From Clostridiales bacterium (lineage in GTDB: Bacteria; Bacillota; Clostridia; Oscillospirales; CAG-272): a DNA stretch of 64,000 nucleotides. The DNA is taken from positions 66,299-130,298 of the forward strand of contig JAJQCT010000032.1 of NCBI GenBank assembly GCA_021202555.1, read 5' to 3'. Under the pieces are notes generated by a model. It made no database searches. It had not been told where the DNA came from and worked only from the letters and a program-made list of their open reading frames with translations. The position numbers and the translations under genes were made by a program. Shown here one piece after another: positions 2,971-57,937 of this stretch (positions within the stretch are counted from its first letter, which is position 1; the number at the start of each line of letters is the position of its first letter).

Positions 2971-3099
2971 AAGGAGGAGAAAGTTTGAAAGATAAATCTT
3001 TCAAACTCCTCGTTTTGTGTCTTTCGTCGCACAAAAGGCAGTGCGACGAAAGACACAATTCCGAACGAAAGGAAGCTTTCGCTTACGCGAAAGTCATGG
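2971..3099 (+). repeat. type-3 modular hairpin leader, copy 1 (inverted partner at 11653-11802)
   Basis: Shares about 48 nt on the left (AAGTTTGAAAGATAAATCTTTCAAACTCC.CGTTTTGTGTC) and about 46 nt on the right (GACACAATTCCGAA.GAAAGGAAGCTTTCGC..ACGCGAAAGTCATGG) with the rarA-proximal copy. The central palindrome differs. Confidence 0.85.
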
Positions 3100-3109
3100 T
3101 AATAATTGA

Positions 3110-4426
3110 ATGTACGGTATCGGACCGAGAGAAGAACAGAAAAAGGAAAAACAGATAATAAGGCAGTTTACGCCGCGCTTCGTGACGGTGACGGTTGCTC
3201 TCGTCGCGCTTATTATAATCGGCGTATACTTTGTCGGCGCGGGAATGCGCGCGGACGCGGCAGCGGCGGAATCGACGCTTTCCGACGGAATAATCGAGGT
3301 ATCATATGCTGACGGCGGCACAGGGGCGGTCACATACGGCACCGTCGGCGAGCGGGAGACGGAGACGGATGACGAGGCGGCTTTAATTGACAACAGCCAG
3401 ACCGTAAACCCCGCAGAGGATTTTCTGACAGTATCGCGCATAGCGCAGCGCCTGGCGTCGGCAATTGAAATCGCGGAGGTCACGACCGAAAAGGAAACCG
3501 AGGCTGAAACGACGACAAAGGCGGAAACAACGACCGAAGCGGAGACTACAACAAAAGCCGAAACAACAACAAAAGCGGAGACGACGACCGAAGCCGAAAC
3601 AACCACAAAGGCGGAGACGACGACAGAGACAGCGGATGAGGCATCGGGCGACGATGCGTCGGATGAGGTCAGCTCGACTGTGACCTCCTCATCAACGACG
3701 ACGCAGGGCAACGTCTACATAGACGGCACGCTTGCCGCGTCATTCTGCGCAATATATATCGACTCGACCGCATACGTTCCCGTTGACAGCTTCGTTGAAG
3801 CGATTGATTCGGACGCAACGGCATCGTGGAGCGGAGCTAAGACGATTGAAATATCGGCAAACGGTCTTTACGCGACGGTAACGAGCGGGAATATTTACAT
3901 AACGGCGAACGACAGAGCGCTGCCCTGCTACGGCACGGTGTACATATCAGACGGGATAATGTGGGCGCCGGTGAGCGTGCTTGCTAAGATGTTCTCATCG
4001 ACCGTCACAACGAGCGGAAACGACGTCTATGTCGGCGCGAAGGGAGATTATCTTGCCTCGGCGGACGAATTTTACGACGAGGACGATTTATATTACCTCT
4101 CGCACATAATCGGCGCGGAGAGCGGCTCCGAATCGTTTGAGGGAAAGCTCGCAGTCGCGGCGGTCATAATGAACCGCGTTGACAGCTCGAAATTCCCGAA
4201 CACGATTTACGGGGTACTGACGCAGGCGGGGCAGTTCACGCCTATGTCTACCGGCTCATACAAGAAAACGCCGAACACCGCGAGCGTAATCGCGGCGAAA
4301 ATGACGCTTGAGGGCTATAGATACGACACAAAGCCCCTTTACTTCTCGGGAGATTACGAGTCGGGATGGATTTCATCGGGGCACACATACCTATACAAAA
4401 TAGGCTCGCACTATTTTTACTCGTAA
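3110..4426 (+). CDS. membrane-anchored SleB/CwlJ-type cell-wall hydrolase with Thr/Glu repeat linker and copper-amine-oxidase-N-like stalk domain
   Basis: N-terminal TM segment (VTVALVALIIIGVYFVGAG). AETTT[KE] repeats. C-terminal Hydrolase_2-like block (GKLAVAAVIMNRVDSSKFPNTIYGVLTQAGQFTP). Confidence 0.75.
   Translation: MYGIGPREEQKKEKQIIRQFTPRFVTVTVALVALIIIGVYFVGAGMRADAAAAESTLSDGIIEVSYADGGTGAVTYGTVGERETETDDEAALIDNSQTVNPAEDFLTVSRIAQRLASAIEIAEVTTEKETEAETTTKAETTTEAETTTKAETTTKAETTTEAETTTKAETTTETADEASGDDASDEVSSTVTSSSTTTQGNVYIDGTLAASFCAIYIDSTAYVPVDSFVEAIDSDATASWSGAKTIEISANGLYATVTSGNIYITANDRALPCYGTVYISDGIMWAPVSVLAKMFSSTVTTSGNDVYVGAKGDYLASADEFYDEDDLYYLSHIIGAESGSESFEGKLAVAAVIMNRVDSSKFPNTIYGVLTQAGQFTPMSTGSYKKTPNTASVIAAKMTLEGYRYDTKPLYFSGDYESGWISSGHTYLYKIGSHYFYS
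3503..3628 (+). repeat. in-frame 18-nt tandem repeat, about 7 units, encoding AETTT[K/E]
   Basis: Read from translation residues 132-173 of the 3110 ORF and from the nucleotide periodicity. Confidence 0.9.
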
Positions 4427-9327: not shown

Positions 9328-9484
9328 TATACCGACAACCTCCTTTTCTCTGCCCGCAAGGTAGCTTTCAAGCACATTACGCACGAAATATTCCTCCCTG
9401 CGTGCGCGTCGGACTATTCCGCTCCGCGGAATAGTCCCTACTTTCATTTCTTTGCTCGCTTTGCGGGCAAAGAAATGAATCGTT

Positions 9485-9835
9485 TGGAGGCGAGGGGAAT
9501 CGAACCCCTGTCCGAAAATCTCTCCCTGTGAATTTCTCCGGGCGCATGGCACCGAAAATCTCCCGCCGAGGCACACGATGCCCAAAGCACCTCGGGGAAA
9601 GCGCTTTAATGCGTGACCGCTTCAAGCGCGAAACGGCGGTTCACGTTCACCACAGTCGTGACGCCCGATATGAGGTCGTGGTCCCCCTCATAAAGGACGC
9701 GCCGCACTTAGGCAGCGAGTGCTAATTCTTCGTCGTTAGCAGTTAAAGTTTTAATTGGAGCCGTATTTAAGAACTTGCCCCATGCTCTGCCCGCTTATCA
9801 CCTATCAAAATCCCCGTCGAAACCTTTACGCCCCC
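9485..9835 (-). ncRNA. ssrA: tmRNA (SsrA), tag reading frame ANDEELALAA-stop
   Basis: 5' GGGGGCGTAAAGGTTTCGACGGGG. 3' tRNA-like end GGGGTTCGATTCCCCTCGCCTCCA. Tag GCTAACGACGAAGAATTAGCACTCGCTGCCTAA on the complement of 9708-9740. Lies 7 nt downstream of smpB. Confidence 0.93.
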
Positions 9836-10414: not shown

Positions 10415-11656
10415 TCACGTTTTTTTCTTTATCGCATCCCAGTAAGCCTCGGCGGCGCGCTCCGTTTTGTTGTCGCCGAATCTGTAATATTTCTTGTCCT
10501 TCACGTCGTCGGGCAGATACTGCTGCTCAACCCAGCGATTCGGGAAATCGTGCGGGTATTTGTACCCGTCGAAAAGCGGCGCGTGAAGATGATGCGGCAC
10601 CGTCTGCCCAAGCCCCGCCTCAACGTCCGCCATCGCCGTCTCGACAGCGACACAGGCTGTGTTCGATTTCGGCGCCGTCGCGAGCATAACGGCAGCGTTT
10701 CCGAGCGGAATCTGCGCCTCGGGCATTCCGAGCTGCTTTGCCGCCTCGCAGCATGAATACGTTATCGCCGCCGCCATCGGGTACGCAGCGCCTATATCCT
10801 CGCTCGCAATTACGAGAAGCCGCCTGCATACGGAAAGAATATCGCCGCCCGCGAGAAGCCGAGCCACATAAAACACTGCGGCATCGGGGTCGGAGCCGCG
10901 AATCGATTTCTGCAGCGCCGAGAGCAAATCATAGTGAACGTCACCGTCGCGGTCAAATGAGCCGTATGACGCGGACGAGAGCGCCGCGAACGTCTCGGGC
11001 GTTATCTCCTCCTCGGCAATGTAAAACGCATTTTCAAGCAGCGTTATCCCGTGACGCACGTCCCCTGCCGCAAATGACGCAAGCTTCATAAGTGTGTCGT
11101 CGCTCGCCGTCACCGTCCGTCCCTCCTCGGCGCATAAAAAATCGAGCGCGCGGCGAAGTGCCGGCGCAAGGTCTCTCGGCTCGACGGGCTTGAATTCAAA
11201 GACGCTGCACCGTGAGAGAAGCGCCGAATAAATGGAGTAGTATGGATTTTCCGTCGTCGAGGCGATGAGGGTCACGCGCCCGTCCTCGATATATTCGAGA
11301 AGCGACTGCTGCTGCTTTTTGTTGAAATACTGAATCTCGTCAAGATAAATTAAAATCCCGCCCGCGCCGAATATATCGGAGGTTGATTTGAGCGCGCTTT
11401 TCACGTCGGACAGCGTCGCCGTCGTCGCGTTGAATCTGTAAATCTTCATCTCGGCGTGCTTCGCGACGATTTCGGCTGCGGTCGTCTTTCCCGTGCCCGC
11501 GGGACCCGAGAAAATCATGTTCGTCACGCGCCCCGCATCAATGAGGCGGCGAAGCGCGCCGTGACTTCCCAGAAGATGGCGCTGACCGACCATTTCGTCG
11601 AAGCTTTGGGGACGAACTGCGTCCGCGAGCGAGCGATTTCTCATATTTTTAACCAT
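10415..11656 (-). CDS. rarA: replication-associated recombination protein A (AAA+ ATPase)
   Basis: Walker A GPAGTGKTT. Walker B IYLDEIQYFNK. MgsA C-terminal block (LHAPLFDGYKYPHDFP). Confidence 0.92.
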   Translation of the reverse strand: MVKNMRNRSLADAVRPQSFDEMVGQRHLLGSHGALRRLIDAGRVTNMIFSGPAGTGKTTAAEIVAKHAEMKIYRFNATTATLSDVKSALKSTSDIFGAGGILIYLDEIQYFNKKQQQSLLEYIEDGRVTLIASTTENPYYSIYSALLSRCSVFEFKPVEPRDLAPALRRALDFLCAEEGRTVTASDDTLMKLASFAAGDVRHGITLLENAFYIAEEEITPETFAALSSASYGSFDRDGDVHYDLLSALQKSIRGSDPDAAVFYVARLLAGGDILSVCRRLLVIASEDIGAAYPMAAAITYSCCEAAKQLGMPEAQIPLGNAAVMLATAPKSNTACVAVETAMADVEAGLGQTVPHHLHAPLFDGYKYPHDFPNRWVEQQYLPDDVKDKKYYRFGDNKTERAAEAYWDAIKKKT

Positions 11657-11802
11657 GACTTTCGCGTCAGCGAAAGCTTCCTTTCATTCGGAATTGTGTC
11701 CGATTCCGCTTTGCGGAATCGCTACGTTCCGCGCAGCGGAATCGTTTGCGAAGGACACAAAACGTGGAGTTTGAAAGATTTATCTTTCAAACTTTCCCTC
11801 CT
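11653..11802 (-). repeat. type-3 modular hairpin leader, copy 2, ending at the rarA start codon
   Basis: Its reverse complement matches 2971-3099 in both flanks. The core holds two TTCCGC-N3/4-GCGGAATCG hairpins enclosed by GTGTCC/GGACAC. Confidence 0.85.
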
Positions 11803-24631: not shown

Positions 24632-24635
24632 TTGA

Positions 24636-24914
24636 GTGAAATCGAGACGGTTGACATCGGTCAACCGTCTCGGATAAATCCGCGCTTCGCGCGGGTAAAA
24701 TCCGTCGCTGACGCGACGGGTTAATGAAAAAAGCCACCTCAACGCTTCGCTTTTGAGATGACTTTTATTCAATTAAAAGTCCGTAGGACTTTTTACCTTA
24801 ACCCGCACAAAGTGCGGATTTCACCGAGTATTCGCCGCAGGCGGATGCTCGATTTCACCTGCCCGAAGGGCAGATTTCACCGTCTCAAAAGCTTTGCTTT
24901 TGAGACGATTTAAC
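24636..24914. repeat. type-1 hairpin array A (9 hairpins on GTGAAATC / GATTTCACC linkers)
   Basis: Linkers at 24636, 24673 and 24695 (GTGAAATC-type) and at 24818, 24851, 24873 and 24907 (GATTTCACC-type). Parsed by hand. Confidence 0.85.
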
Positions 24915-25007
24915 TCCCCGTATTCTTTTCAGCTTGCATAAACGCAAAAAATGAGTTATACTATATATGCGAAAAAGCCATCGCGGAGCATTTCGGAGGA
25001 CAATTAG

Positions 25008-25205: not shown

Positions 25206-25253
25206 CAAAGTCTGAAAGATACATCCTTCAGACTTCAGAAAGGAGAATCGAAA

Positions 25254-25565
25254 ATGGAAGTTATAAAGGTAACAGGCGATACCTTTGAGGAAATTGTAAT
25301 CGGCTCGGACGTGCCCGTGCTTGTCGATTTCTGGGCAACATGGTGCGGTCCCTGCCGCATGATGACGCCCGTAACGGAGGCGCTCGCCGCCGAATCTGAC
25401 GGGAAATACAAAATTTGCTCCGTCAACGTGGACGAGGAGCCCGCTCTTGCCGACCGCTTCGGCGTAAACTCGATACCGATGTTCATATCGTTTTCGGGCG
25501 GCGAGATGAAGGGAAGCACAGTCGGCGTCACGCCTAAGGAGACGCTTCTTACGCTTCTTGCGTGA
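25254..25565 (+). CDS. trxA: thioredoxin
   Basis: WCGPC active site. 103 aa. Confidence 0.93.
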   Translation: MEVIKVTGDTFEEIVIGSDVPVLVDFWATWCGPCRMMTPVTEALAAESDGKYKICSVNVDEEPALADRFGVNSIPMFISFSGGEMKGSTVGVTPKETLLTLLA

Positions 25566-36473: not shown

Positions 36474-36553
36474 GTGAATATTTTTCACCAATCTATGATT
36501 TGGTGAAAAATATTCACCAACTTTAAGAATGAATCTACGATTCATTCTTAAAG

Positions 36554-36555
<2 letters not shown>
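36474..36555. repeat. type-2 double nested palindrome, copy a (right arm overlaps the gyrB stop codon)
   Basis: GTGAATATTTTTCACCAATC-tat-GATTTGGTGAAAAATATTCAC, then AACTTTAAGAATGAATC-tac-GATTCATTCTTAAAGTT. Confidence 0.85.
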
Positions 36556-38581
<2,026 letters not shown>

Positions 38582-38857
38582 TCAGTACTCATAATTTCCG
38601 GCGGACGCGCTTTTTGTCCGCGCGGCGACGGTGACTGACATCAGCTCCGAGAGCGTAACCATGTCGTCCCCCGTCAGAATAAAGCTTTTCGGCAGCTCAT
38701 GCGTCAGAACAATAAGCCTGCCCTCACTCTGGCTTTTATTAAGAAAATCCTTCGTCGTCCCCGACACGGTCGCGCTGTCCATGTCGAAAATTCCGATTAT
38801 ATCGGGAGAAAATATAAGCCTTCCCCCGCCCGCGTGTACATATGCCATAAAGTTCAC
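38582..38857 (-). CDS. DUF370 / RemB(YaaB)-like small protein
   Basis: Conserved recF-(DUF370)-gyrB position. IIGIFDMD motif. GTG start overlaps the recF stop; the ATG at 38848 is an alternative. Confidence 0.7.
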   Translation of the reverse strand: MNFMAYVHAGGGRLIFSPDIIGIFDMDSATVSGTTKDFLNKSQSEGRLIVLTHELPKSFILTGDDMVTLSELMSVTVAARTKSASAGNYEY

Positions 38858-39981
38858 CTCGCGCAGCTTTCCTTGGCGCTCCCGTCCTTGATGTAATATT
38901 TCCTTCCGTTCGGTATTCGCCTTGACGCGGAAAGGTCGCAGGCTGTTATAATCACCTGCCGCTCGCCAAGCCCCGAGGCGACAAACGAGCGCCTTTGCGG
39001 GTCAAGCTCCGAGAGCACGTCGTCAAAAAGAAACACGGGATATTCCCCCGTCCGCCTTCGCGAGCATTCCCCCTCAGCAAGCTTCATCGAAAGCACAATT
39101 CCTCTTTCCTGCCCCTGCGACGCGAATGATTTCGCCTCGCGCCCGTCAAGCGTAATCTCAATATCGTCCTTGTGCGTCCCGTACTGCGTCGAGCCTAAAA
39201 TTATCTCACGCTCCGTGTTTTCCGTGAGAAGCGACGAGTAAATTTTCCTTATGCGCGCCTCGTCCCTGTATTCGCCGCCAAGCCGCGAACACCCGCGGTA
39301 TGAAAGCCCGAGCGTCTCCGCCCCGCCCGTCATATCGGAATATATCTCACCTGACGCCAAAGCGAGCGAATCTATATATTCGCACCTTTCGACCGTGATT
39401 TTCGCGGCAAGCTCTGCGAGCTGCTCAGACCATGCCTCCAGCAGCAGCCGTCTGTCGCCTCCCTCGCGCGCCCTTTTAAGCTCCGCGTTCCTTCCGAAAA
39501 GCACCTTATTGTAGCGCTGAAGCGTCCTCATGTAAAGCGGCTTAAGCTGCGATATTGCCACGTCGACAAACGCGCGCCTCTCGGACGGCGAGCCCTTCAC
39601 GATAAAAAGATGCTCGGGACAGAAAAGAACTGCCCTGAAGCTCCCTATAAGCTCGGATAACCTTTCAAGCTTTACACCGTTTTTTGAAATTTGCTTCCGC
39701 TTCCCGCCTCCGAAATTCCCGATCTGCATTATGAGCGTGTTCTCGCTCCCGCCGCTCTCGTAAACGATTCTGACAAGCGCATAATCCGAGCCGAATCTCA
39801 CCATTTCCTCGTCATGGACAGCTCTCATGCTTTTTCCCTGCGCGAAAAGGTAAATTCCTTCGAGCATATTCGTCTTTCCCTGCGCGTTTTTTCCGAAAAG
39901 AATCGTCGATGTCGGAGAAAAATCGAGCCGCGCGCTCTCTATGTTGCGAAAATCAGTATATTCGGCGCTTTTAATTATCAT
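38854..39981 (-). CDS. recF: DNA replication and repair protein RecF
   Basis: Walker A GKNAQGKTN. Signature GQERGIVLSMKLAE. Walker B FLFDDVLSELD. Confidence 0.95.
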   Translation of the reverse strand: MIIKSAEYTDFRNIESARLDFSPTSTILFGKNAQGKTNMLEGIYLFAQGKSMRAVHDEEMVRFGSDYALVRIVYESGGSENTLIMQIGNFGGGKRKQISKNGVKLERLSELIGSFRAVLFCPEHLFIVKGSPSERRAFVDVAISQLKPLYMRTLQRYNKVLFGRNAELKRAREGGDRRLLLEAWSEQLAELAAKITVERCEYIDSLALASGEIYSDMTGGAETLGLSYRGCSRLGGEYRDEARIRKIYSSLLTENTEREIILGSTQYGTHKDDIEITLDGREAKSFASQGQERGIVLSMKLAEGECSRRRTGEYPVFLFDDVLSELDPQRRSFVASGLGERQVIITACDLSASRRIPNGRKYYIKDGSAKESCAR

Positions 39982-40021
39982 CTGTCATTTCTTTTTGTAT
40001 CTTCATTTTCCTCACTTACAG

Positions 40022-40380
40022 GTTTGAAATCTTCACTTCCATCGCTATCCGACTTTATAGCTTGAAAGATTCCATCTTTCAAGCTGTGAAGTCGATAGGT
40101 TGCAAGTTTGAAATTTTTCAAACTTGCAATCCTGTATAGTCGTCAGGTTTGAAAGATGGAAAAATTTATTTTTCCGTCTTTCAAATCCTATGCTGTCGGT
40201 TCCGCGAAGCGGAATCGCCGTCTTACTTTCTGACGGCGAAGACAGCAGCGAATCAACCGCCTATTCAACCTTTGCTGTTGTTTCCGCGAAGCGGAATCGT
40301 CGTCTTACTTTTTGACGACGAAAACAGCAAAGTTGACAGTTTTGTAATTTTGAAAAATTCTTTTTCAAAATTACAAAACT
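40022..40380. repeat. about 360-bp field of nested hairpins between recF and dnaN, including a tandem pair of three-way-junction-like units
   Basis: Hairpins at 40059-40085, 40100-40129, 40146-40188 and 40338-40380. Units at 40192-40246 and 40274-40328. All parsed by hand. Confidence 0.85.
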
Positions 40381-41527
40381 ATTCCTTCATTCTCACGGGC
40401 ATCATGAAGAATACGAAATCTCCCTCGTCCTCATCGCTCTTTTCGTCCGCGCTCGTTATCGAAATTCCCATAAGCGGCGTGGACAGCCCTATATGAAGCG
40501 TCTTTGCGTCGGTTGCCGCAACGGCGTCGAGCAGGAATCTGCAATTGAAGCCGATTTTAATGTCGTCGCCCTGCTTTTTAATCGGAATCTCGTCGTAAAC
40601 CGAGCCGGAAACGCCGTCGGAGGTTATGATAAGCCTGTCGTCCTCAAAGGAAAGTTTGACGTATCCGCGGGCAGACCCCGCCTTTTCCTCAATCATCAGA
40701 TTCGCTCTTTCAAGCGACGCGCCGAACTGACCGCGGTCAATCTCGACCGAAATCATATGCGACTTCGGCAAAATCCTTTCGTAGTCTATATATGTGCCGT
40801 CAATCAGGCGCGAGAAGAATATAATGTCCCCGACTGTGAATATTACGTGCTTTAATGTCAGGGAGACTGTCATCATGTCCTCCGTATCAGCGACGCGGCG
40901 TGAAAGCTCCGTGAGAGTCGTCCCCGGAACTATAAACGAAACATCAGTCTCGCCGACACCGTGGGCGTTTGAAATCTCGCACCTTGAAACGCATTTTGAA
41001 AGCCTGTTTGCGTCGCATGAAACGACAGTTATCTCGCCGCTTGAAATTTTGAAATACGCGCCCGTGAATATGGGACGCTGATCCTTTGCCGCTATCGCAA
41101 AGCGCGTCATCTCAATAAAGCGCTTCATCACGTGCTGCGGAATATCAAATCCCGTCTCGCCCGAAAGGACGGGCAGCGACGGAAAATCCGACCCCGGAAG
41201 CGCATGAAGCTCAAAGCAGCTCTTGCCGCTCGTAATTTTCACATTCATTCTGTCATTTACGGTCAGAAGCAGCTCTCCCGACGGAATCGTTTTGATAATC
41301 GAGTAGAATTTCTGCGCGTTTATAATATAGCTGCCCGGCTCAATGACCTCGCATTCAAGTGACGTTCTGATTCCCTTTTCAGTGTCATAGCCCGTAATGA
41401 CGCATACTCCGTCCTTTGCCTCAAAGAGCAGTCCCTCAATAGCCTGTATCGTGCTTTTTGACGAGACAGCTCCGAGAGCGGGTGTTACTGCCGCTATAAG
41501 CGGCTCCTTTTCAAATCTTACCTTCAT
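40379..41527 (-). CDS. dnaN: DNA polymerase III beta sliding clamp
   Basis: 382 aa with three-domain clamp pattern. Position downstream of dnaA. Confidence 0.95.
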   Translation of the reverse strand: MKVRFEKEPLIAAVTPALGAVSSKSTIQAIEGLLFEAKDGVCVITGYDTEKGIRTSLECEVIEPGSYIINAQKFYSIIKTIPSGELLLTVNDRMNVKITSGKSCFELHALPGSDFPSLPVLSGETGFDIPQHVMKRFIEMTRFAIAAKDQRPIFTGAYFKISSGEITVVSCDANRLSKCVSRCEISNAHGVGETDVSFIVPGTTLTELSRRVADTEDMMTVSLTLKHVIFTVGDIIFFSRLIDGTYIDYERILPKSHMISVEIDRGQFGASLERANLMIEEKAGSARGYVKLSFEDDRLIITSDGVSGSVYDEIPIKKQGDDIKIGFNCRFLLDAVAATDAKTLHIGLSTPLMGISITSADEKSDEDEGDFVFFMMPVRMKE

Positions 41528-42049
41528 CCTCTTTCCTCTCCTCCCACAGTAAGCTTCACAGCCTGCGATTCGCAGCTTTTTTCACCCCTGTGGAAAATTT
41601 TTTGTCCGAGCGCGAACGCGCCCACAATATAATATATTATATATATCAGCAGCCGCAGCAGTAGGCTCTGTGGAAAATGCGGAAAACTCGCCGCAGCCCT
41701 TTTATTTGCTCAATTTTCCGACCGCAAATCATGTTGAAAACAGCCGGCAAATCATGTTGACGCCCAAAAGCTTATCAACAGCCCCCGAAAAATCCCGCTC
41801 AGCTGCCGCTGTGCCACCGCTGTCAAATTTAAGCCTTGACTTCCACAAAAAGGGACGAAAATCGGCTGATTTTTGTCTTATCAACAGCCCCCGGCGAAAT
41901 TTGCCGACAGGAAATTTTCGTGTTATGGCGGGAATTTCCGAAGTCTTCGTGAGCTGTAAACCCGATTTTGCGGCAGGTTTTCCACAGACTTTTCCACAGA
42001 CTGTGGAAAAGTCGGGCGATAAAATGCCTTCGCAGACGCCCCCAAGCGG
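41528..42049. other. oriC (dnaA-dnaN spacer): DnaA-box cluster plus AT-rich unwinding element
   Basis: TTTTCCACA/TGTGGAAAA at 41589, 41669, 41978, 41990 and 42002. TTATCAACA at 41772 and 41878. A weaker ACTTCCACA at 41839. Confidence 0.8.
41626..41646. other. candidate DNA unwinding element (21 consecutive A/T)
   Basis: AATATAATATATTATATATAT, flanked by DnaA boxes at 41589 and 41669. Confidence 0.6.
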
Positions 42050-43450
42050 TCAGATTTCAATATCGTTCAGAAGATCGTTTATCTCAACCGCGAAGGCTGG
42101 ATTCGATTCGATTTCGCGGTCGATTACGCCGATTGATGAAACTATCGTCGAGTGGTCGCGCCCGAATATCTTCCCGATGGCGGGCAGTGAAAGCTCCGTC
42201 TTTTTCCGAAGCACATATACGGCGATATGACGCGCCCATGAAATATTTTTCATTCTGCTCTTGCCGATAATATCCTTCGATTCGACGCCGTAGCGGGAGC
42301 TTACCTCGGAGAGCACGCGCTCCACCTTAGCCTCCGTCGGCACCTCCTCGGGAATCACGTCCGCAATGCATCTTGCCGCCATGTCAAGCGTAACGGGACC
42401 GCCTGAGACAAAGCTCGTCGCCGAAAGGCGCTTGAGCGTCCCTTCAATCTGCCGCACGTTGCTTTTCAGCTTATCCGCCAAAAATCCGACGACATCGGAT
42501 GAAAGTGAAAGCGACATCGCCTCCGCCTTTTTCTTTATAATCGCCGCGCGAAGCTCGGGGTCGGGCGGCTGAATGTCAGCTATAAGCCCCCATTCGCACC
42601 TCGTCTTGATTCTGTCCTCGAGGAGCTTTATGTCGCGCGCCGGTCTGTCGCTTGTGAAAATTATCTGCTTATGCGCGTCGTAAAGCGTATTGAAGGTGTG
42701 AAACAGCTCCTCCTGCGTCGAGGTCTTGCCCGCTACAAACTGCACGTCGTCAATCAGCAGCACATCAGCCCGCCTGAATTTCTCGCGGAAGGTCTGCGTG
42801 CTTCTCTCCGAAATCGCCGCTATAAGCTGATTTGTGAAATCCTCGCATTTCGTGTAAACGACGTTGAGCGTTGGATTTTTGCGCTTCAGCTCGTTTGTGA
42901 CGGCGTACATCAGATGCGTCTTTCCAAGCCCGCTGTGACCGTAAATGAAAAGCGGATTGTATACAGACCCCGGCGTGTTCGCGACCGCAAGACAGGCAGC
43001 GTGAGCGAATTTGTTTGAATCCCCGACTATGAAATTTTCAAACGTGTACTCTGTGTGGAAAACGAAATCCTCTGTCCCAGATGTCATCGCAGATGTCATC
43101 TGGGTTGACATCTGTGCCGAGGCGGCGGCATCCTTCTGAAAGGAGGCGGGAACTGTTCCCATTCCGATTCCCGTCGGCGTGCGCGCCCTTTCAAGCGAGC
43201 GGACGGTGACGAAGCAGCGCTTGTTCGTCGTGAGCGAGAACAGCTCCTCCAGCAGCCGCTTATAATTCCTGCTTACAATATCAGCCTTGAAATCCGCGCC
43301 GACTGTAACCTCGGCGAAAAGATCGCCACTCTGCTCCTTGAGCGAGGAAAGCTCCATATCAGCAAACCAAAGCCCGTATGTCGAATCAGAGAACTGCCGC
43401 CGCAGCTCGTTTTTAACGGTCGTCACCGTTTCCGATAAATCATAGTTCAA
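42050..43450 (-). CDS. dnaA: chromosomal replication initiator DnaA (TTG start)
   Basis: Walker A GHSGLGKTHL. Walker B LLIDDVQF. C-terminal DnaA signature HSTIVSSI. Confidence 0.97.
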   Translation of the reverse strand: MNYDLSETVTTVKNELRRQFSDSTYGLWFADMELSSLKEQSGDLFAEVTVGADFKADIVSRNYKRLLEELFSLTTNKRCFVTVRSLERARTPTGIGMGTVPASFQKDAAASAQMSTQMTSAMTSGTEDFVFHTEYTFENFIVGDSNKFAHAACLAVANTPGSVYNPLFIYGHSGLGKTHLMYAVTNELKRKNPTLNVVYTKCEDFTNQLIAAISERSTQTFREKFRRADVLLIDDVQFVAGKTSTQEELFHTFNTLYDAHKQIIFTSDRPARDIKLLEDRIKTRCEWGLIADIQPPDPELRAAIIKKKAEAMSLSLSSDVVGFLADKLKSNVRQIEGTLKRLSATSFVSGGPVTLDMAARCIADVIPEEVPTEAKVERVLSEVSSRYGVESKDIIGKSRMKNISWARHIAVYVLRKKTELSLPAIGKIFGRDHSTIVSSIGVIDREIESNPAFAVEINDLLNDIEI

Positions 43451-43504
43451 AATATCATACCCTTACCGTATTTTTTATTTAAGCGCAATGCGCGAATATT
43501 CAAC

Positions 43505-43544
43505 AGACTTGAAGAATAAGGCTGTGCCTTATTCTTCAAAGTCT
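43505..43544. repeat. type-2-related hairpin AGAC-TTGAAGAATAAGGC-tgt-GCCTTATTCTTCAA-aGTCT
   Basis: Same frame (ACAGAC TTGA..GC tgt GC..TCAA .GTCT) as 52414-52456. Preceded by AATATTCAAC. Confidence 0.7.
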
Positions 43545-44736: not shown

Positions 44737-46263
44737 TTGAAAACAAAGGAATTTCGCGTGCGCGCGTATATCGCGTTTATTTTGTGCGCGGTTATGATAT
44801 TAGCCTGCTCTTTTACAACATCTGTTTTTGCCGATGACACAGCTTCAGACGTCACGTCTGAAGCTGACGAGACGTCAGAAGCTGACGAAACTGATACCGA
44901 AACGGAGCTGACGGAGATAACAATCGAGGAGGAGGATTCGAGCTTTTCGATTCTCGACATTCTCTATATCCCGATGGGCTTCATCATGCGCGTATGCTAC
45001 AGCATAACGAACAATTACGCTTTCGCGCTTCTGCTTTTCGCGCTTGTAATGCAGCTCATTTTGCTCCCGCTCGGGGTAAGACAGCAAAAGGGAATGATAA
45101 AGCAGGCGTCGCTTCGCCCGAAGGAAAGCGCGATTCGCAAGAAGTACGCGGGGCGCACCGATCAGGCGACGCAGAAGAAGATGAACGACGAGCTGATGGC
45201 GCTCTATCAGGCGGAAAATTACAATCCCGCGAGCGGATGTCTGCCACTTCTCATTCAGCTTCCGATAATTCTTGCGCTTTTCACAGTTGTGCGTCAGCCG
45301 CTCACGTATATAACGCGGCTTGACGAGGGAGTTATCGACGCGCTCAAATCCGCAGTCGAGCAGCTTGGCGGCACTCTTACGACCTCATACGAGGAAATAA
45401 GCGTTATCACCTTCATACGCGACAACGGGCTTGACGGAATCCGCTCGATAATAACGAATTTCGACGAGCTTTCGGGAATCACGGATTCAACCGTTTTCCC
45501 CGATTTCACGATGTTCGGAGTATTTGACCTGTCCGTTATACCGTCAAGTCAGTTCATACCGTATATTCTCGTTCCTATACTGACGGGAGCGGTCATGCTC
45601 ATAACGACGAAGCTTCAGCGGAAATTCACCTATCAGTCCGAGGCGACGATGGACGCGCAGAATCAGTCCTCGATGAAGATAATGATGTGGATTTCGCCTC
45701 TCATGTGTGCGTATTTTGCCTACATTGTCCCGTCCGCCATCGGCGTATACTGGATTTGGCGAAATCTGCTCTCATTTTTGCAGCAGGTGATTCTCTCAAA
45801 GGTGATGCCGACGCCGAAATTTACAGAGGAGGAGCTTCTGGCGGCGGAGCGCGAATATCTCGGGAAAAAGCCCAAAAAGTCGGGCGCATCCGTAGAGGGC
45901 GGTCAGAAAAAGGTTTACGACGCAGACCATCCGCGTCCGCGCTCACTGCACCGAATTGATTTTGAGGACACAACACCGTTGGACGAGGACGTGTCGTCCT
46001 CGTCCAAGGTGGCGAAGACGGCGCAGCCGTCTTCGAGTAAAGATGCTTCGGGTGAGGAAAGCACGGATTCGTCAAAGACAGGCGAGGAAAGCGGAGGCGC
46101 GTCGGGCGGGCTGATTGAGGCGGCGCCGCTCAAGACTGACACCCGCTCCGACAAGGCGGCGGGAAGGAAAAAGAAAAAGCGCTCGGACGACAAAACAGAC
46201 GACAAAACAGAAGAGGAATCCGCAGCTGATGCGGAAAAAACGACAGAGAAAGAGAAGGATTGA
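44737..46263 (+). CDS. yidC: YidC/Oxa1-family membrane insertase with acidic N-terminal and long charged C-terminal extensions
   Basis: Core MQLILLPLGVRQQKGMIK...NPASGCLPLLIQLPI. TTG start with an AAAGGAG RBS. Confidence 0.88.
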   Translation: MKTKEFRVRAYIAFILCAVMILACSFTTSVFADDTASDVTSEADETSEADETDTETELTEITIEEEDSSFSILDILYIPMGFIMRVCYSITNNYAFALLLFALVMQLILLPLGVRQQKGMIKQASLRPKESAIRKKYAGRTDQATQKKMNDELMALYQAENYNPASGCLPLLIQLPIILALFTVVRQPLTYITRLDEGVIDALKSAVEQLGGTLTTSYEEISVITFIRDNGLDGIRSIITNFDELSGITDSTVFPDFTMFGVFDLSVIPSSQFIPYILVPILTGAVMLITTKLQRKFTYQSEATMDAQNQSSMKIMMWISPLMCAYFAYIVPSAIGVYWIWRNLLSFLQQVILSKVMPTPKFTEEELLAAEREYLGKKPKKSGASVEGGQKKVYDADHPRPRSLHRIDFEDTTPLDEDVSSSSKVAKTAQPSSSKDASGEESTDSSKTGEESGGASGGLIEAAPLKTDTRSDKAAGRKKKKRSDDKTDDKTEEESAADAEKTTEKEKD

Positions 46264-52340: not shown

Positions 52341-52374
52341 AAGTAGATTATATCATAAAAGTGCGCTAAACCGC

Positions 52375-52645
52375 AAATATTCAATGAAAAACATAGATTT
52401 TCATTGAATATTTGACAGACTTGACGATGCAAGCTGTGCTTGCATCGTCAATGTCTTGCGCTGTACCGTGAATATTGCGCTGCGCGCAATATTCATCAAC
52501 TTGCAGAATGAATCTGCGATTCATTCTGCAATGTTGTGTTATCATAAATTGAGCGGAAAACCGTGAATATTTTCCGCGAATCACAGATTCGCGGAAAATA
52601 TTCATCAACTTGAACAACAAAGCTATGCTTTGTTGTTCAATGTTG
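52375..52645. repeat. type-2 nested palindrome array (lead hairpins plus two full double units)
   Basis: Hairpins at 52375-52413 and 52417-52456. Units at 52468-52536 and 52563-52645. Confidence 0.85.
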
Positions 52646-57614: not shown

Positions 57615-57629
57615 TGCTCATATTGAGCA

Positions 57630-57937
57630 GTGAAATCGCCGCTACGCGGCGGATAAATCCGCACTTCGTGCGGGTGAAATCACAGCAAATGCAAAGCATT
57701 TGCTGTGGTGAAATCCGTCGCTTTAGCGACGGGTTAAAGAAGCCTCTTAAAAGCTTTGCTTTTAAGAGGCAGTTTAATTTAATAGTCTTTTCAAAGTCTA
57801 TGCTTTGAAAAGACTTCATAAACCGCTGCGAAGCAGCGATTTCACCCTGCCTGTGCGATAGCACGGGCAGGATTTAACCCGACCGTAAGGTCGGATTTCA
57901 CCCCGCGGGAGCTTTTATGGCTCCCGCGGGATTTCAC
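57630..57937. repeat. type-1 hairpin array B (10 hairpins on GTGAAATC / GATTTCACC linkers)
   Basis: Linkers at 57630, 57652, 57674 and 57708 (GTGAAATC-type) and at 57839, 57871, 57894 and 57931 (GATTTCACC-type). Confidence 0.9.

Follow-up and report, generated by a model that had tools for sequence, protein, structure and literature searches.

The DNA analysed here is a stretch of 64,000 nucleotides, referred to as the window, from a Clostridiales bacterium of the lineage CAG-272 within the Oscillospirales (assembly GCA_021202555.1, contig JAJQCT010000032.1, positions 66,299 to 130,298). The subject is the spacer between the replication genes dnaN and recF, whose hairpins and tandem three-way junctions (3WJ) belong to a family of small elements for which the name P1-3WJ element is introduced. 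On the minus strand the genes follow in the order dnaA (42050-43450), dnaN (40379-41527), the 397-nt spacer (39982-40378), recF (38854-39981), a RemA-like/DUF370 gene, gyrB and gyrA. From the dnaN side to the recF side, the spacer holds the following features:

40338-40380, minus strand: hairpin H1, arms 40338-40357 and 40361-40380, a 20-bp stem with 100% complementarity and a 3-nt loop, starting at the dnaN stop codon
40270-40332, minus strand: three-way-junction unit B, consisting of outer stem, TT, hairpin a, A and hairpin b (TTCCGC-ttc-GCGGAA)
40188-40250, minus strand: three-way-junction unit A, a tandem copy 82 nt from unit B
40146-40187, minus strand: hairpin H2 (P1-like, long), GGATTTGAAAGACGGAAAAAT-aa-ATTTTTCCATCTTTCAAACC, with ATAG just before it
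40100-40129, minus strand: hairpin H3, arms 40100-40113 and 40116-40129, a 14-bp stem with 100% complementarity, TTGCAAGTTTGAAA/TTTCAAACTTGCAA
40050-40094, minus strand: hairpin H4, a diverged P1 palindrome, AGCTTGAAAGAT-gga-ATCTTTCAAGCT inside CGACTT..AAGTCG
39982-40049, minus strand: recF-proximal leader with an SD-like GAGG (SD, Shine-Dalgarno) and an upstream open reading frame (uORF) of 11 codons at 40006-39971, which overlaps the recF start codon

The spacer hairpins are short palindromic stem-loops as known from REP sequences, 27-45 nt in overall length with perfect stems of 12-20 bp. The arms of H2 (40148-40165 and 40168-40185; 18 nt, 94% complementary) contain a bulge and a single transition mismatch (C·A when read on the recF-sense strand), and those of H4 (40050-40070 and 40074-40094; 21 nt) are 90% complementary around a core that reads AGCTTGAAAGAT-tcc-ATCTTTCAAGCT on the plus strand. 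The tandem units correspond to direct repeats at 40187-40247 and 40269-40329, each 61 nt long, with 89% identity and an offset of 82 nt. The junctions between modules carry ATAG or ATAGG (gaATAGtttt, gcATAGgattt, tcggATAGcg). An inverted-repeat search recovered all hairpins and both tandem units where an initial annotation of this DNA had placed them. The 20-bp stem at 40338-40380 is indeed perfect, and its right arm overlaps two of the three bases of the dnaN stop codon. A single detail had to be corrected: the hairpin with the arms AGCTTGAAAGAT was described as nested inside CTTCAC..GTGAAG, but its true outer extension is CGACTT..AAGTCG across a 3x3 internal mismatch.

Folded as recF-sense RNA, the spacer reaches -161 kcal/mol compared with -87 +/- 4.8 kcal/mol for dinucleotide shuffles (z = -15.6), which places the hairpins far beyond chance, as originally claimed. 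The antisense strand folds at least as stably, even slightly more so. When the two units of the window are compared with the single unit of a spacer from another strain (L003), the six stem differences form three compensated pairs and none is uncompensated. The probability of obtaining the pattern of unit A versus unit B by chance is about 7e-4 if only transitions are allowed, an assumption that favours chance.

The modules of the spacer have a parent in the P1-3WJ element, which reads in gene orientation as a host SD-like sequence, 4-6 nt, the P1 palindrome TTTGAAAGAT-nn-ATCTTTCAAA, the 3WJ, GAAAGGA and ATGGTCATAAATATG. The consensus of the 3WJ is GTTTTGTGsC, TT, hairpin a, A, hairpin b, nC, GsCACAATTCC. 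GAAAGGA represents the element's own SD and occurs with or without one further hairpin, while the last ATG of ATGGTCATAAATATG is the start codon of the downstream gene. There are also minimal copies that lack the 3WJ. For the searches we used a covariance model, R1, derived from 24 3WJ modules that all come from other genomes, and a hidden Markov model (HMM) of the full element. Besides the spacer, three P1 elements are present in the window:

2975-3112, plus strand: canonical P1-3WJ element upstream of a SleB-like hydrolase gene (R1 E = 2.6e-8, full-element HMM E = 8e-20)
11642-11801, minus strand: canonical P1-3WJ element upstream of the MgsA/RarA gene (R1 E = 5.5e-10, full-element HMM E = 2e-21)
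25207-25256, plus strand: minimal P1 element upstream of a small ORF, consisting of a P1-like palindrome, AGAAAGGAG and ATG

The first two are copies of one element of 130-160 nt, which share the palindrome AGTTTGAAAGAT-nn-ATCTTTCAAACT at 2982-3007 and 11768-11793. The second one includes two GATTCCGC-nnn-GCGGAATC hairpins that match hairpin b of the spacer units in type (written GATTCCGC-nnn-GCGGAA, at 11704 and 11727). Paralogy of the SleB-like and MgsA/RarA genes was considered as well, and no similarity between them was found.

Applied to the 64 kb with filters off, R1 gave only four significant matches, 11690-11763, 3012-3062, unit B (40272-40330, minus strand, 30.1 bits, E = 2.1e-6) and unit A (40194-40244, minus strand, 18.6 bits, E = 0.0048). 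Both spacer units are matched on the recF-sense strand, and the next match has E = 0.5. The full-element HMM aligns the 275-nt spacer of L003 from P1 through the 3WJ in canonical order (E = 2.5e-5). The two tandem units are homologous to the 3WJ module, and the spacer hairpins are P1-type palindromes.

Outside the window the family is widespread. A scan for exact P1 (TTTGAAAGAT-N2-5-ATCTTTCAAA) in one genome per species found the pattern in at least 117 genomic stretches, where by our own estimate, not computed by the scan itself, only few would be expected by chance. Among the matches listed, nearly all come from metagenome-assembled genomes (MAGs) of Clostridia, including Oscillospiraceae, Ruminococcaceae, Acutalibacteraceae, Flemingiibacterium and ruminant-gut bins; the cultured Acetanaerobacterium elongatum (CGMCC 1.5012) and OW818648.1, a 4.2-Mb chromosome, also have the element, and several genomes are multicopy. 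The species of the window is not among the matches listed. On viral contigs, eight of nine P1 matches display the canonical architecture. Canonical-looking elements were also observed in a few bins labelled as other taxa (L028, a Paludibacteraceae MAG; L039/L152, a Desulfobulbaceae MAG and a viral contig), for which bin contamination, phage carriage or horizontal transfer may be the reason. In 64 of 80 copies the 18 nt before P1 include an SD-like 4-mer, compared with 14 of 80 in a control window. With regard to a possible target-site duplication, AAG precedes P1 in 49 of 80 copies. The element is intercistronic in 31 of 74 copies, i.e. a co-directional gene ends 1-139 nt upstream, the same setting as between dnaN and recF. 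The 64 downstream genes are diverse, functionally unrelated housekeeping genes, for example uvrC, recJ, icd, ispG, murG, atpD, plsX and ABC ATPases, and this diversity led us to discard the idea of a regulon that the repair genes recF and rarA might have suggested.

The claim that the three-way fold is kept by compensatory change has gained a much broader basis, since it now applies to dozens of genomes. R1 found 65 matches on the fetched loci, from which 63 distinct copies entered the covariation analysis. In their three helices 80.4% of the cells are paired (66.6% in shuffles) and 179 cells are doubly changed, compared with 63 in shuffles and 31-59 when partners are slid; none of 500 shuffles reached the observed values. 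Copies within one genome are more alike than copies of different genomes (identity 0.80 vs 0.70; 0 of 2000 permutations), and such genome-specific subfamilies suggest amplification. A metagenome scan with the window-type 3WJ retrieved two identical soil matches that lack the flanking element architecture and are probably due to chance. Literature searches yielded nothing specific on the motif or on an SD-proximal repeat element in Clostridia, and the P1-3WJ element is apparently undescribed.

Two observations concern the coding potential around the element. At its 3' end ATGGTCATAAATATG (window elements and loci L025-L141), ORF callers let many unrelated proteins begin with MVINM, MVIKM or MVIIM, and the real start of these proteins is probably the second ATG; look-ups of the exact protein with both MgsA starts retrieved no record. 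A leader peptide starting from the TTG inside P1 was tried and rejected, because its frame relative to the main ATG is 0, 1 or 2 in 4, 6 and 9 copies, its stops are scattered and the spacing after P1 varies in non-multiples of 3.

The comparison of strains covered the 64 kb of the source genome, three other strains with about 21 kb apiece, and five more assemblies with shorter stretches. An exact look-up of the DnaN protein retrieved eight contigs with identical DnaN, three of which are NCBI MAGs labelled "Clostridia bacterium". Three MAGs of the species are GCA_021201675.1, GCA_021199895.1 and GCA_021205025.1. Among these eight, the dnaN-recF spacer measures 155, 196, 275 or 397 nt, i.e. it differs by up to 240 nt, and the variants are different strings of hairpins with 0, 0, 1 and 2 three-way units, respectively, and with differing P1-like hairpins. 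Every variant opens with the hairpin at the dnaN stop codon, hence H1 is kept in all four with compensated changes (GTAA/TTAC vs GCAA/TTGC). At the other end, the last ~45 nt before the recF start are common to all four variants and a longer 3' leader to three of them. L001 and L002 contain the exact family motif TTTGAAAGAT-www-ATCTTTCAAA in an extended hairpin that corresponds to H4. Upstream of recF, L003 retains the canonical order of P1 followed by 3WJ, which is rearranged in the window strain, and an 80-nt unit of L003 that is missing from L001 has ATAGG on both flanks. Across the variants, ATAGG and CTGT recur at the module junctions. In the spacer field, modules are thus gained, lost and put in a new order while strains diverge, making the recF leader one of the most variable places in a replication operon that is otherwise conserved. 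Beyond these strains, the closest DnaN proteins have only 71% identity. A relative at this distance has a 198-nt spacer with few, unrelated hairpins, and relatives with 67% and 58% DnaN identity have spacers of 34 and 57 nt that fold weakly, which makes the hairpin field a recent expansion. Within the leader, the uORF ATGAAGATACAAAAAGAAATGACAGATGATAATTAA (40006-39971, minus strand) directly follows the SD-like GAGG and overlaps the recF start (39981-39979) in another frame. Its start ATGAAGATA and its final 17 nt (TGACAGATGATAATTAA) are conserved in all four variants; the reading frame is not, because two variants have a 5-nt deletion inside the uORF.

In our view the dnaN-recF spacer likely represents a strain-hypervariable cluster of modules from the multicopy, mosaic P1-3WJ family, which is REP/BIME- or BOX-like in character and presumably co-transcribed with dnaN and recF. 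No promoter-like site and, on either strand, no terminator-like site was found in 39982-40378, and no T-run follows the spacer stems; hence, judged from its sequence, the spacer is probably transcribed together with its two neighbours. An ancestral P1-3WJ element in front of recF might later have been expanded and rearranged at the DNA level by duplication, slippage, or recombination/transposition between hairpin modules, with ATAGG repeated at the junctions. The complementarity of the stems may mainly be kept at the DNA level, or because hairpins are recognised in single-stranded DNA, and less through selection acting on the sense RNA; recent copying or templated correction from arm to arm would be further routes at this level. 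The element might persist only where the translation of the gene behind it is preserved, which would fit its strict orientation and built-in SD. By analogy with REP elements and clostridial intergenic stem-loops, the perfect stems of 14-20 bp could act as intercistronic barriers in RNA processing and stability. Such barriers might uncouple the fates of the dnaN and recF mRNAs, and the conserved last ~45 nt would supply the translation initiation of recF.

The mismatches in the stems bear on the level at which complementarity is maintained. A functional sense RNA normally tolerates G·U pairs and purges A·C pairs. In sense orientation, a symmetric hairpin finder counted 48 A·C and 32 G·T mismatches, and 17 and 8, respectively, within the junctions, i.e. 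no enrichment of G·U over A·C was found. Since A·C is not purged relative to G·U, the pattern points to maintenance at the DNA level and would argue against sense-RNA selection as the main force on the stems.

Several points weigh against a REP/BIME- or BOX-like module cluster. The mismatch symmetry is based on small counts (48 vs 32; 17 vs 8). Neither a transposase nor an excision footprint nor a clean pair of empty and filled sites was found for the canonical element, whose two loci were not reached by the strain comparison; transposase families are absent among the 25 listed of 79 Pfam families from 46 window proteins. Terminal inverted repeats and the GTAG/CGTC tag of classical REPs are missing. 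The strict co-orientation, the own SD, the conserved unpaired junction nucleotides and the covariation of the stems would equally fit an RNA module that benefits the host. Co-transcription and any effect on RNA are deduced for an uncultured organism, and the genome is covered in part, namely by 64 kb of the source genome and stretches of other strains.

Comparison with described repeats helps to place the family. REPs are short palindromic units of 20-40 bp with an unpaired GTAG or CGTC tag at one end (PMC3733652, PMC2817692). Like the spacer, REP/BIME sequences and the RAYT-mobilised REPINs are short intergenic palindromes in mosaic arrays of strain-variable composition (PMC3733652, PMC2817692), and REP/BIME sequences likewise lie between co-directional genes, are probably co-transcribed, have been proposed as mRNA stabilisers and form species-specific subfamilies. 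However, the spacer hairpins carry neither tag, and several of them are preceded by a recurrent ATAG(G) instead. In BIMEs the REPs are regularly spaced in alternating orientation, whereas the two 3WJ units of the spacer repeat in the same direction, on the minus strand, at a distance of 82 nt. REPs reach more than about 100 copies per genome; the 64 kb of the window contain 49 perfect hairpins and, besides the spacer, three P1 elements. The parent element further differs by its three-way junction, its fixed place between SD and start codon and its own SD, and it resides in Clostridia while REP/BIME hosts are Proteobacteria. RAYT, the IS200/IS605-like Y1 transposase that mobilises REPINs and whose gene the repeats flank, was not seen among the listed Pfam families of the window proteins.

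Miniature inverted-repeat transposable elements (MITEs) are resembled in so far as P1-3WJ elements are small (45-170 nt), lack a conserved reading frame, occur in several copies per genome and vary in unit number among strains at dnaN-recF. MITEs are defined by terminal inverted repeats, whereas the ends TTTGAAAGAT... and ...ATGGTCATAAATATG of the P1-3WJ element are not inverted copies of each other. BOX of Streptococcus pneumoniae and Correia/NEMIS of Neisseria are small modular or mosaic repeats near genes, co-transcribed as stable stem-loops that affect expression or RNA processing. They share with P1-3WJ the modular construction, the variable number of internal modules and the gene-proximal stem-loops, but there is no sequence relationship, and P1-3WJ lacks terminal inverted repeats, is far more strictly placed and oriented relative to the start codon and is taxonomically broader, with many genera and phages.

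The STAB-SD and 5' stem-loop stabilisers of Bacillus are single-copy features in the 5' leaders of particular genes. STAB-SD also combines a hairpin with a nearby SD-like sequence that does not serve the main start, whereas P1-3WJ is a cassette present in multiple copies, which contains a 3WJ and brings a second SD. In the cip-cel operon of Ruminiclostridium cellulolyticum, intergenic stem-loops serve as endonuclease signals and end-protecting structures that set the stoichiometry of the flanking genes (PMC10311766). Like the dnaN-recF field they lie between clostridial genes and are co-transcribed, which for dnaN-recF is only presumed, but their function has been demonstrated experimentally and they were not described as a dispersed repeat family (PMC10311766). 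Because the tag, the alternation, the inverted repeats and an Rfam assignment are lacking, we file P1-3WJ as behaving like a REP/BIME- or BOX-type mosaic repeat without being a member of these families.

A more far-reaching proposal is possible, if still doubtful: P1-3WJ might be an undescribed class of small mobile or structured elements of Oscillospirales-type Clostridia and their phages, which occupies the gap between SD and start codon, brings its own SD, by which translation of the host gene would continue, and keeps a fold of hairpin and 3WJ that a dedicated protein recognises as single-stranded DNA or RNA. The dnaN-recF spacer would then be a hotspot where such modules have piled up and recombined.

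Alternatively, the modules could primarily be an RNA device that benefits the host, i.e. a generic leader for translation initiation or mRNA stability, which spread by recombination and not as selfish DNA. Such a device could consist of an SD/anti-SD mimic hairpin plus a protein-binding three-way junction, or of a 5' stabiliser against RNase J, and the field before recF would be a more complex form of it, by which the synthesis of RecF is adjusted to that of DnaN. This explanation appears unlikely to us but is the main rival. The element is always gene-oriented, lies in the gap from an SD-like sequence to the start codon and has its own SD GAAAGGA, to which the P1 3' arm AUCUUUC is complementary; the same arm also resembles the 3' end of Firmicute 16S rRNA. 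Moreover, the stems covary and the junction nucleotides are conserved, housekeeping genes as well as phage genes follow the element, and clostridial intergenic stem-loops are experimentally known to control processing and stoichiometry (PMC10311766). However, the downstream genes have no functional theme, number and order of modules vary freely among strains with identical flanking proteins, and related lineages manage with a spacer of 34-57 nt. Neither the lack of G·U enrichment on the sense strand, together with an antisense strand that folds at least as well, nor the genome-specific subfamilies, which suggest amplification, would be expected of such a device, and an uORF frame is not conserved.

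The initial annotation favoured a single selected fold, and a dedicated cis-regulatory RNA for recF, such as an attenuator or a riboswitch-like structure, could draw on the very stable fold, on the compensated substitutions among the three units and on the position directly upstream of recF. It is nevertheless very improbable, because the same modules precede unrelated genes, strains with identical DnaN have 0, 1 or 2 units in grossly different spacers, relatives have none, the transition mismatches show no G·U excess on the sense strand and there is no terminator-like expression platform. Rfam (release 15) returned only tmRNA and one tRNA for the whole window in gathering mode, and only miRNA-type hairpin noise far below threshold for the spacer and the element at 2975-3112 in E-value mode, so the spacer matches no family.

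A DNA cruciform or another accessory structure next to oriC, the second reading offered at first for a fold "beside the origin", seems scarcely credible. Perfect palindromes could extrude, and the locus is about 1.2 to 3.5 kb away from clusters of DnaA boxes. However, searching for TTATCCACA with at most one mismatch gave no DnaA box in the spacer and seven at 41589-42010 in the dnaA-dnaN spacer. Identical module types, which are always gene-oriented, occur 28-37 kb away (2975-3112 and 11642-11801), in many other genomes and on phage contigs, hairpin fields are found in about 20 of 35 intergenic regions, and strains differ by up to 240 nt at the spacer. The seven DnaA-box-like sites (TTTTCCACA or TTATCAACA) include an inverted pair that makes a palindrome at 41987-42013, and the cumulative GC skew has a local minimum at about 42-44 kb; the cluster at 41589-42010 is probably one half of a bipartite oriC.

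Although yaaA occupies the corresponding position in Bacillus, a decayed yaaA/rlbA gene has a negligible probability, as the eight ORF fragments of the spacer have no Pfam match at E <= 10 and none is a credible ORF, tblastn with a YaaA sequence produced only noise, the hairpin modules account for the spacer sequence completely, and the relatives with 71%, 67% and 58% DnaN identity run directly from dnaN to recF without an S4-protein gene. These gene-free junctions imply a lineage without the "usual yaaA slot" that had been assumed. Collectively, the initial interpretation is partly supported; the maintained fold and the absence of a gene hold, whereas the yaaA slot, the link to the origin and the dedicated RNA do not.

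At the level of the locus, the result removes the attractive but wrong idea of an origin-linked structure that replaces yaaA. The lasting interest lies more in the parent family, a multicopy, covarying three-way-junction element placed between SD and start codon in dozens of housekeeping and phage genes that are unrelated to each other, in many uncultured Clostridia from gut and digesters. A mobile P1-3WJ would be an insertion element able to survive because it restores the translation start that its insertion disrupts, whereas an RNA device would amount to a leader cassette of general use. In both cases gene-start annotation is affected, because many proteins would be called with a spurious "MVINM" N-terminus, and the occurrence in the cultured A. 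elongatum makes experiments possible.

Hairpins are not restricted to the P1-3WJ loci. In the 64-kb window, 49 hairpins have perfect stems of 9 bp or more; at least 36 of them fall within 7.9 kb of intergenic DNA where 0.5 would be expected, and about 20 of the 35 intergenic regions hold at least one. When three other strains were aligned over 21 kb (93-97% identity), all breaks in collinearity coincided with hairpin sites:

gyrB-gyrA and remB-gyrB junctions, upstream of dnaA, yidC 3' end, 48.5 kb and 50.1 kb: collinearity breaks
33280: collinearity break with a 276-nt hairpin insert in one strain

The yidC gene (44737-46263, plus strand) has perfect hairpins with 13-bp and 10-bp stems at 45979-46035 inside its 3' coding part, and the called YidC proteins of the strains have 486, 489, 505, 508 or 543 amino acids. 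Together with the collinearity break this variation indicates that hairpin modules seem to be tolerated in a coding tail. Strain-variable hairpins also occur in the rpmH-dnaA region (43495-43539), where other strains have 58, 107 or 210 extra nt (L018 7975-8050, L019 7905-8030, L020 6950-7175); hence, hairpin turnover extends into the presumptive origin region.

Two copies of a symmetric composite array of about 300 nt are found at 24632-24920 and 57615-57935, one between convergent and the other between co-directional genes. Three to four repeats of a GTGAAATC linker plus short hairpin form the left half, one or two longer hairpins the centre, and three to four repeats of a hairpin plus GATTTCACC the right half. 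The halves are mirrored, and the left linkers are therefore the reverse complement of the right ones. The two arrays differ by compensated changes (CGCGC/GCGCG vs CGCAC/GTGCG) and by the gain or loss of whole hairpins.

A second hairpin family occurs as tandem pairs of [accg TGAATATT-variable-AATCnnnGATT-variable'-AATATTCA] followed by [tcaac TTGnnn...nnnCAA] at 52374-52640 and 36474-36555 as well as in L018 (18150-18460), L020 (6950-7175) and L019 (7905-8030). In the TGAATATT/AATATTCA hairpins the stem bases and loops are conserved, the middles are variable yet perfectly complementary, and the copy number depends on the strain. Directly after the tmRNA gene (9484-9835, minus strand), the region 9411-9479 harbours a TTCCGC-nnn-GCGGAA hairpin (GGACTATTCCGCtccGCGGAATAGTCC), which shares the hairpin-b motif of the three-way units, and a second hairpin of 13 bp.

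Finally, short-read contigs of the species often end at or near hairpin fields (L017, i.e. logan SRR15221328_4456, and the short Logan contigs L006-L008), which suggests that the hairpin repeats break assemblies, with consequences for MAGs whose contigs break at such fields. Contig L017, for example, begins 110 nt upstream of a MurD-like gene, within the hairpin field at 52.4 kb.

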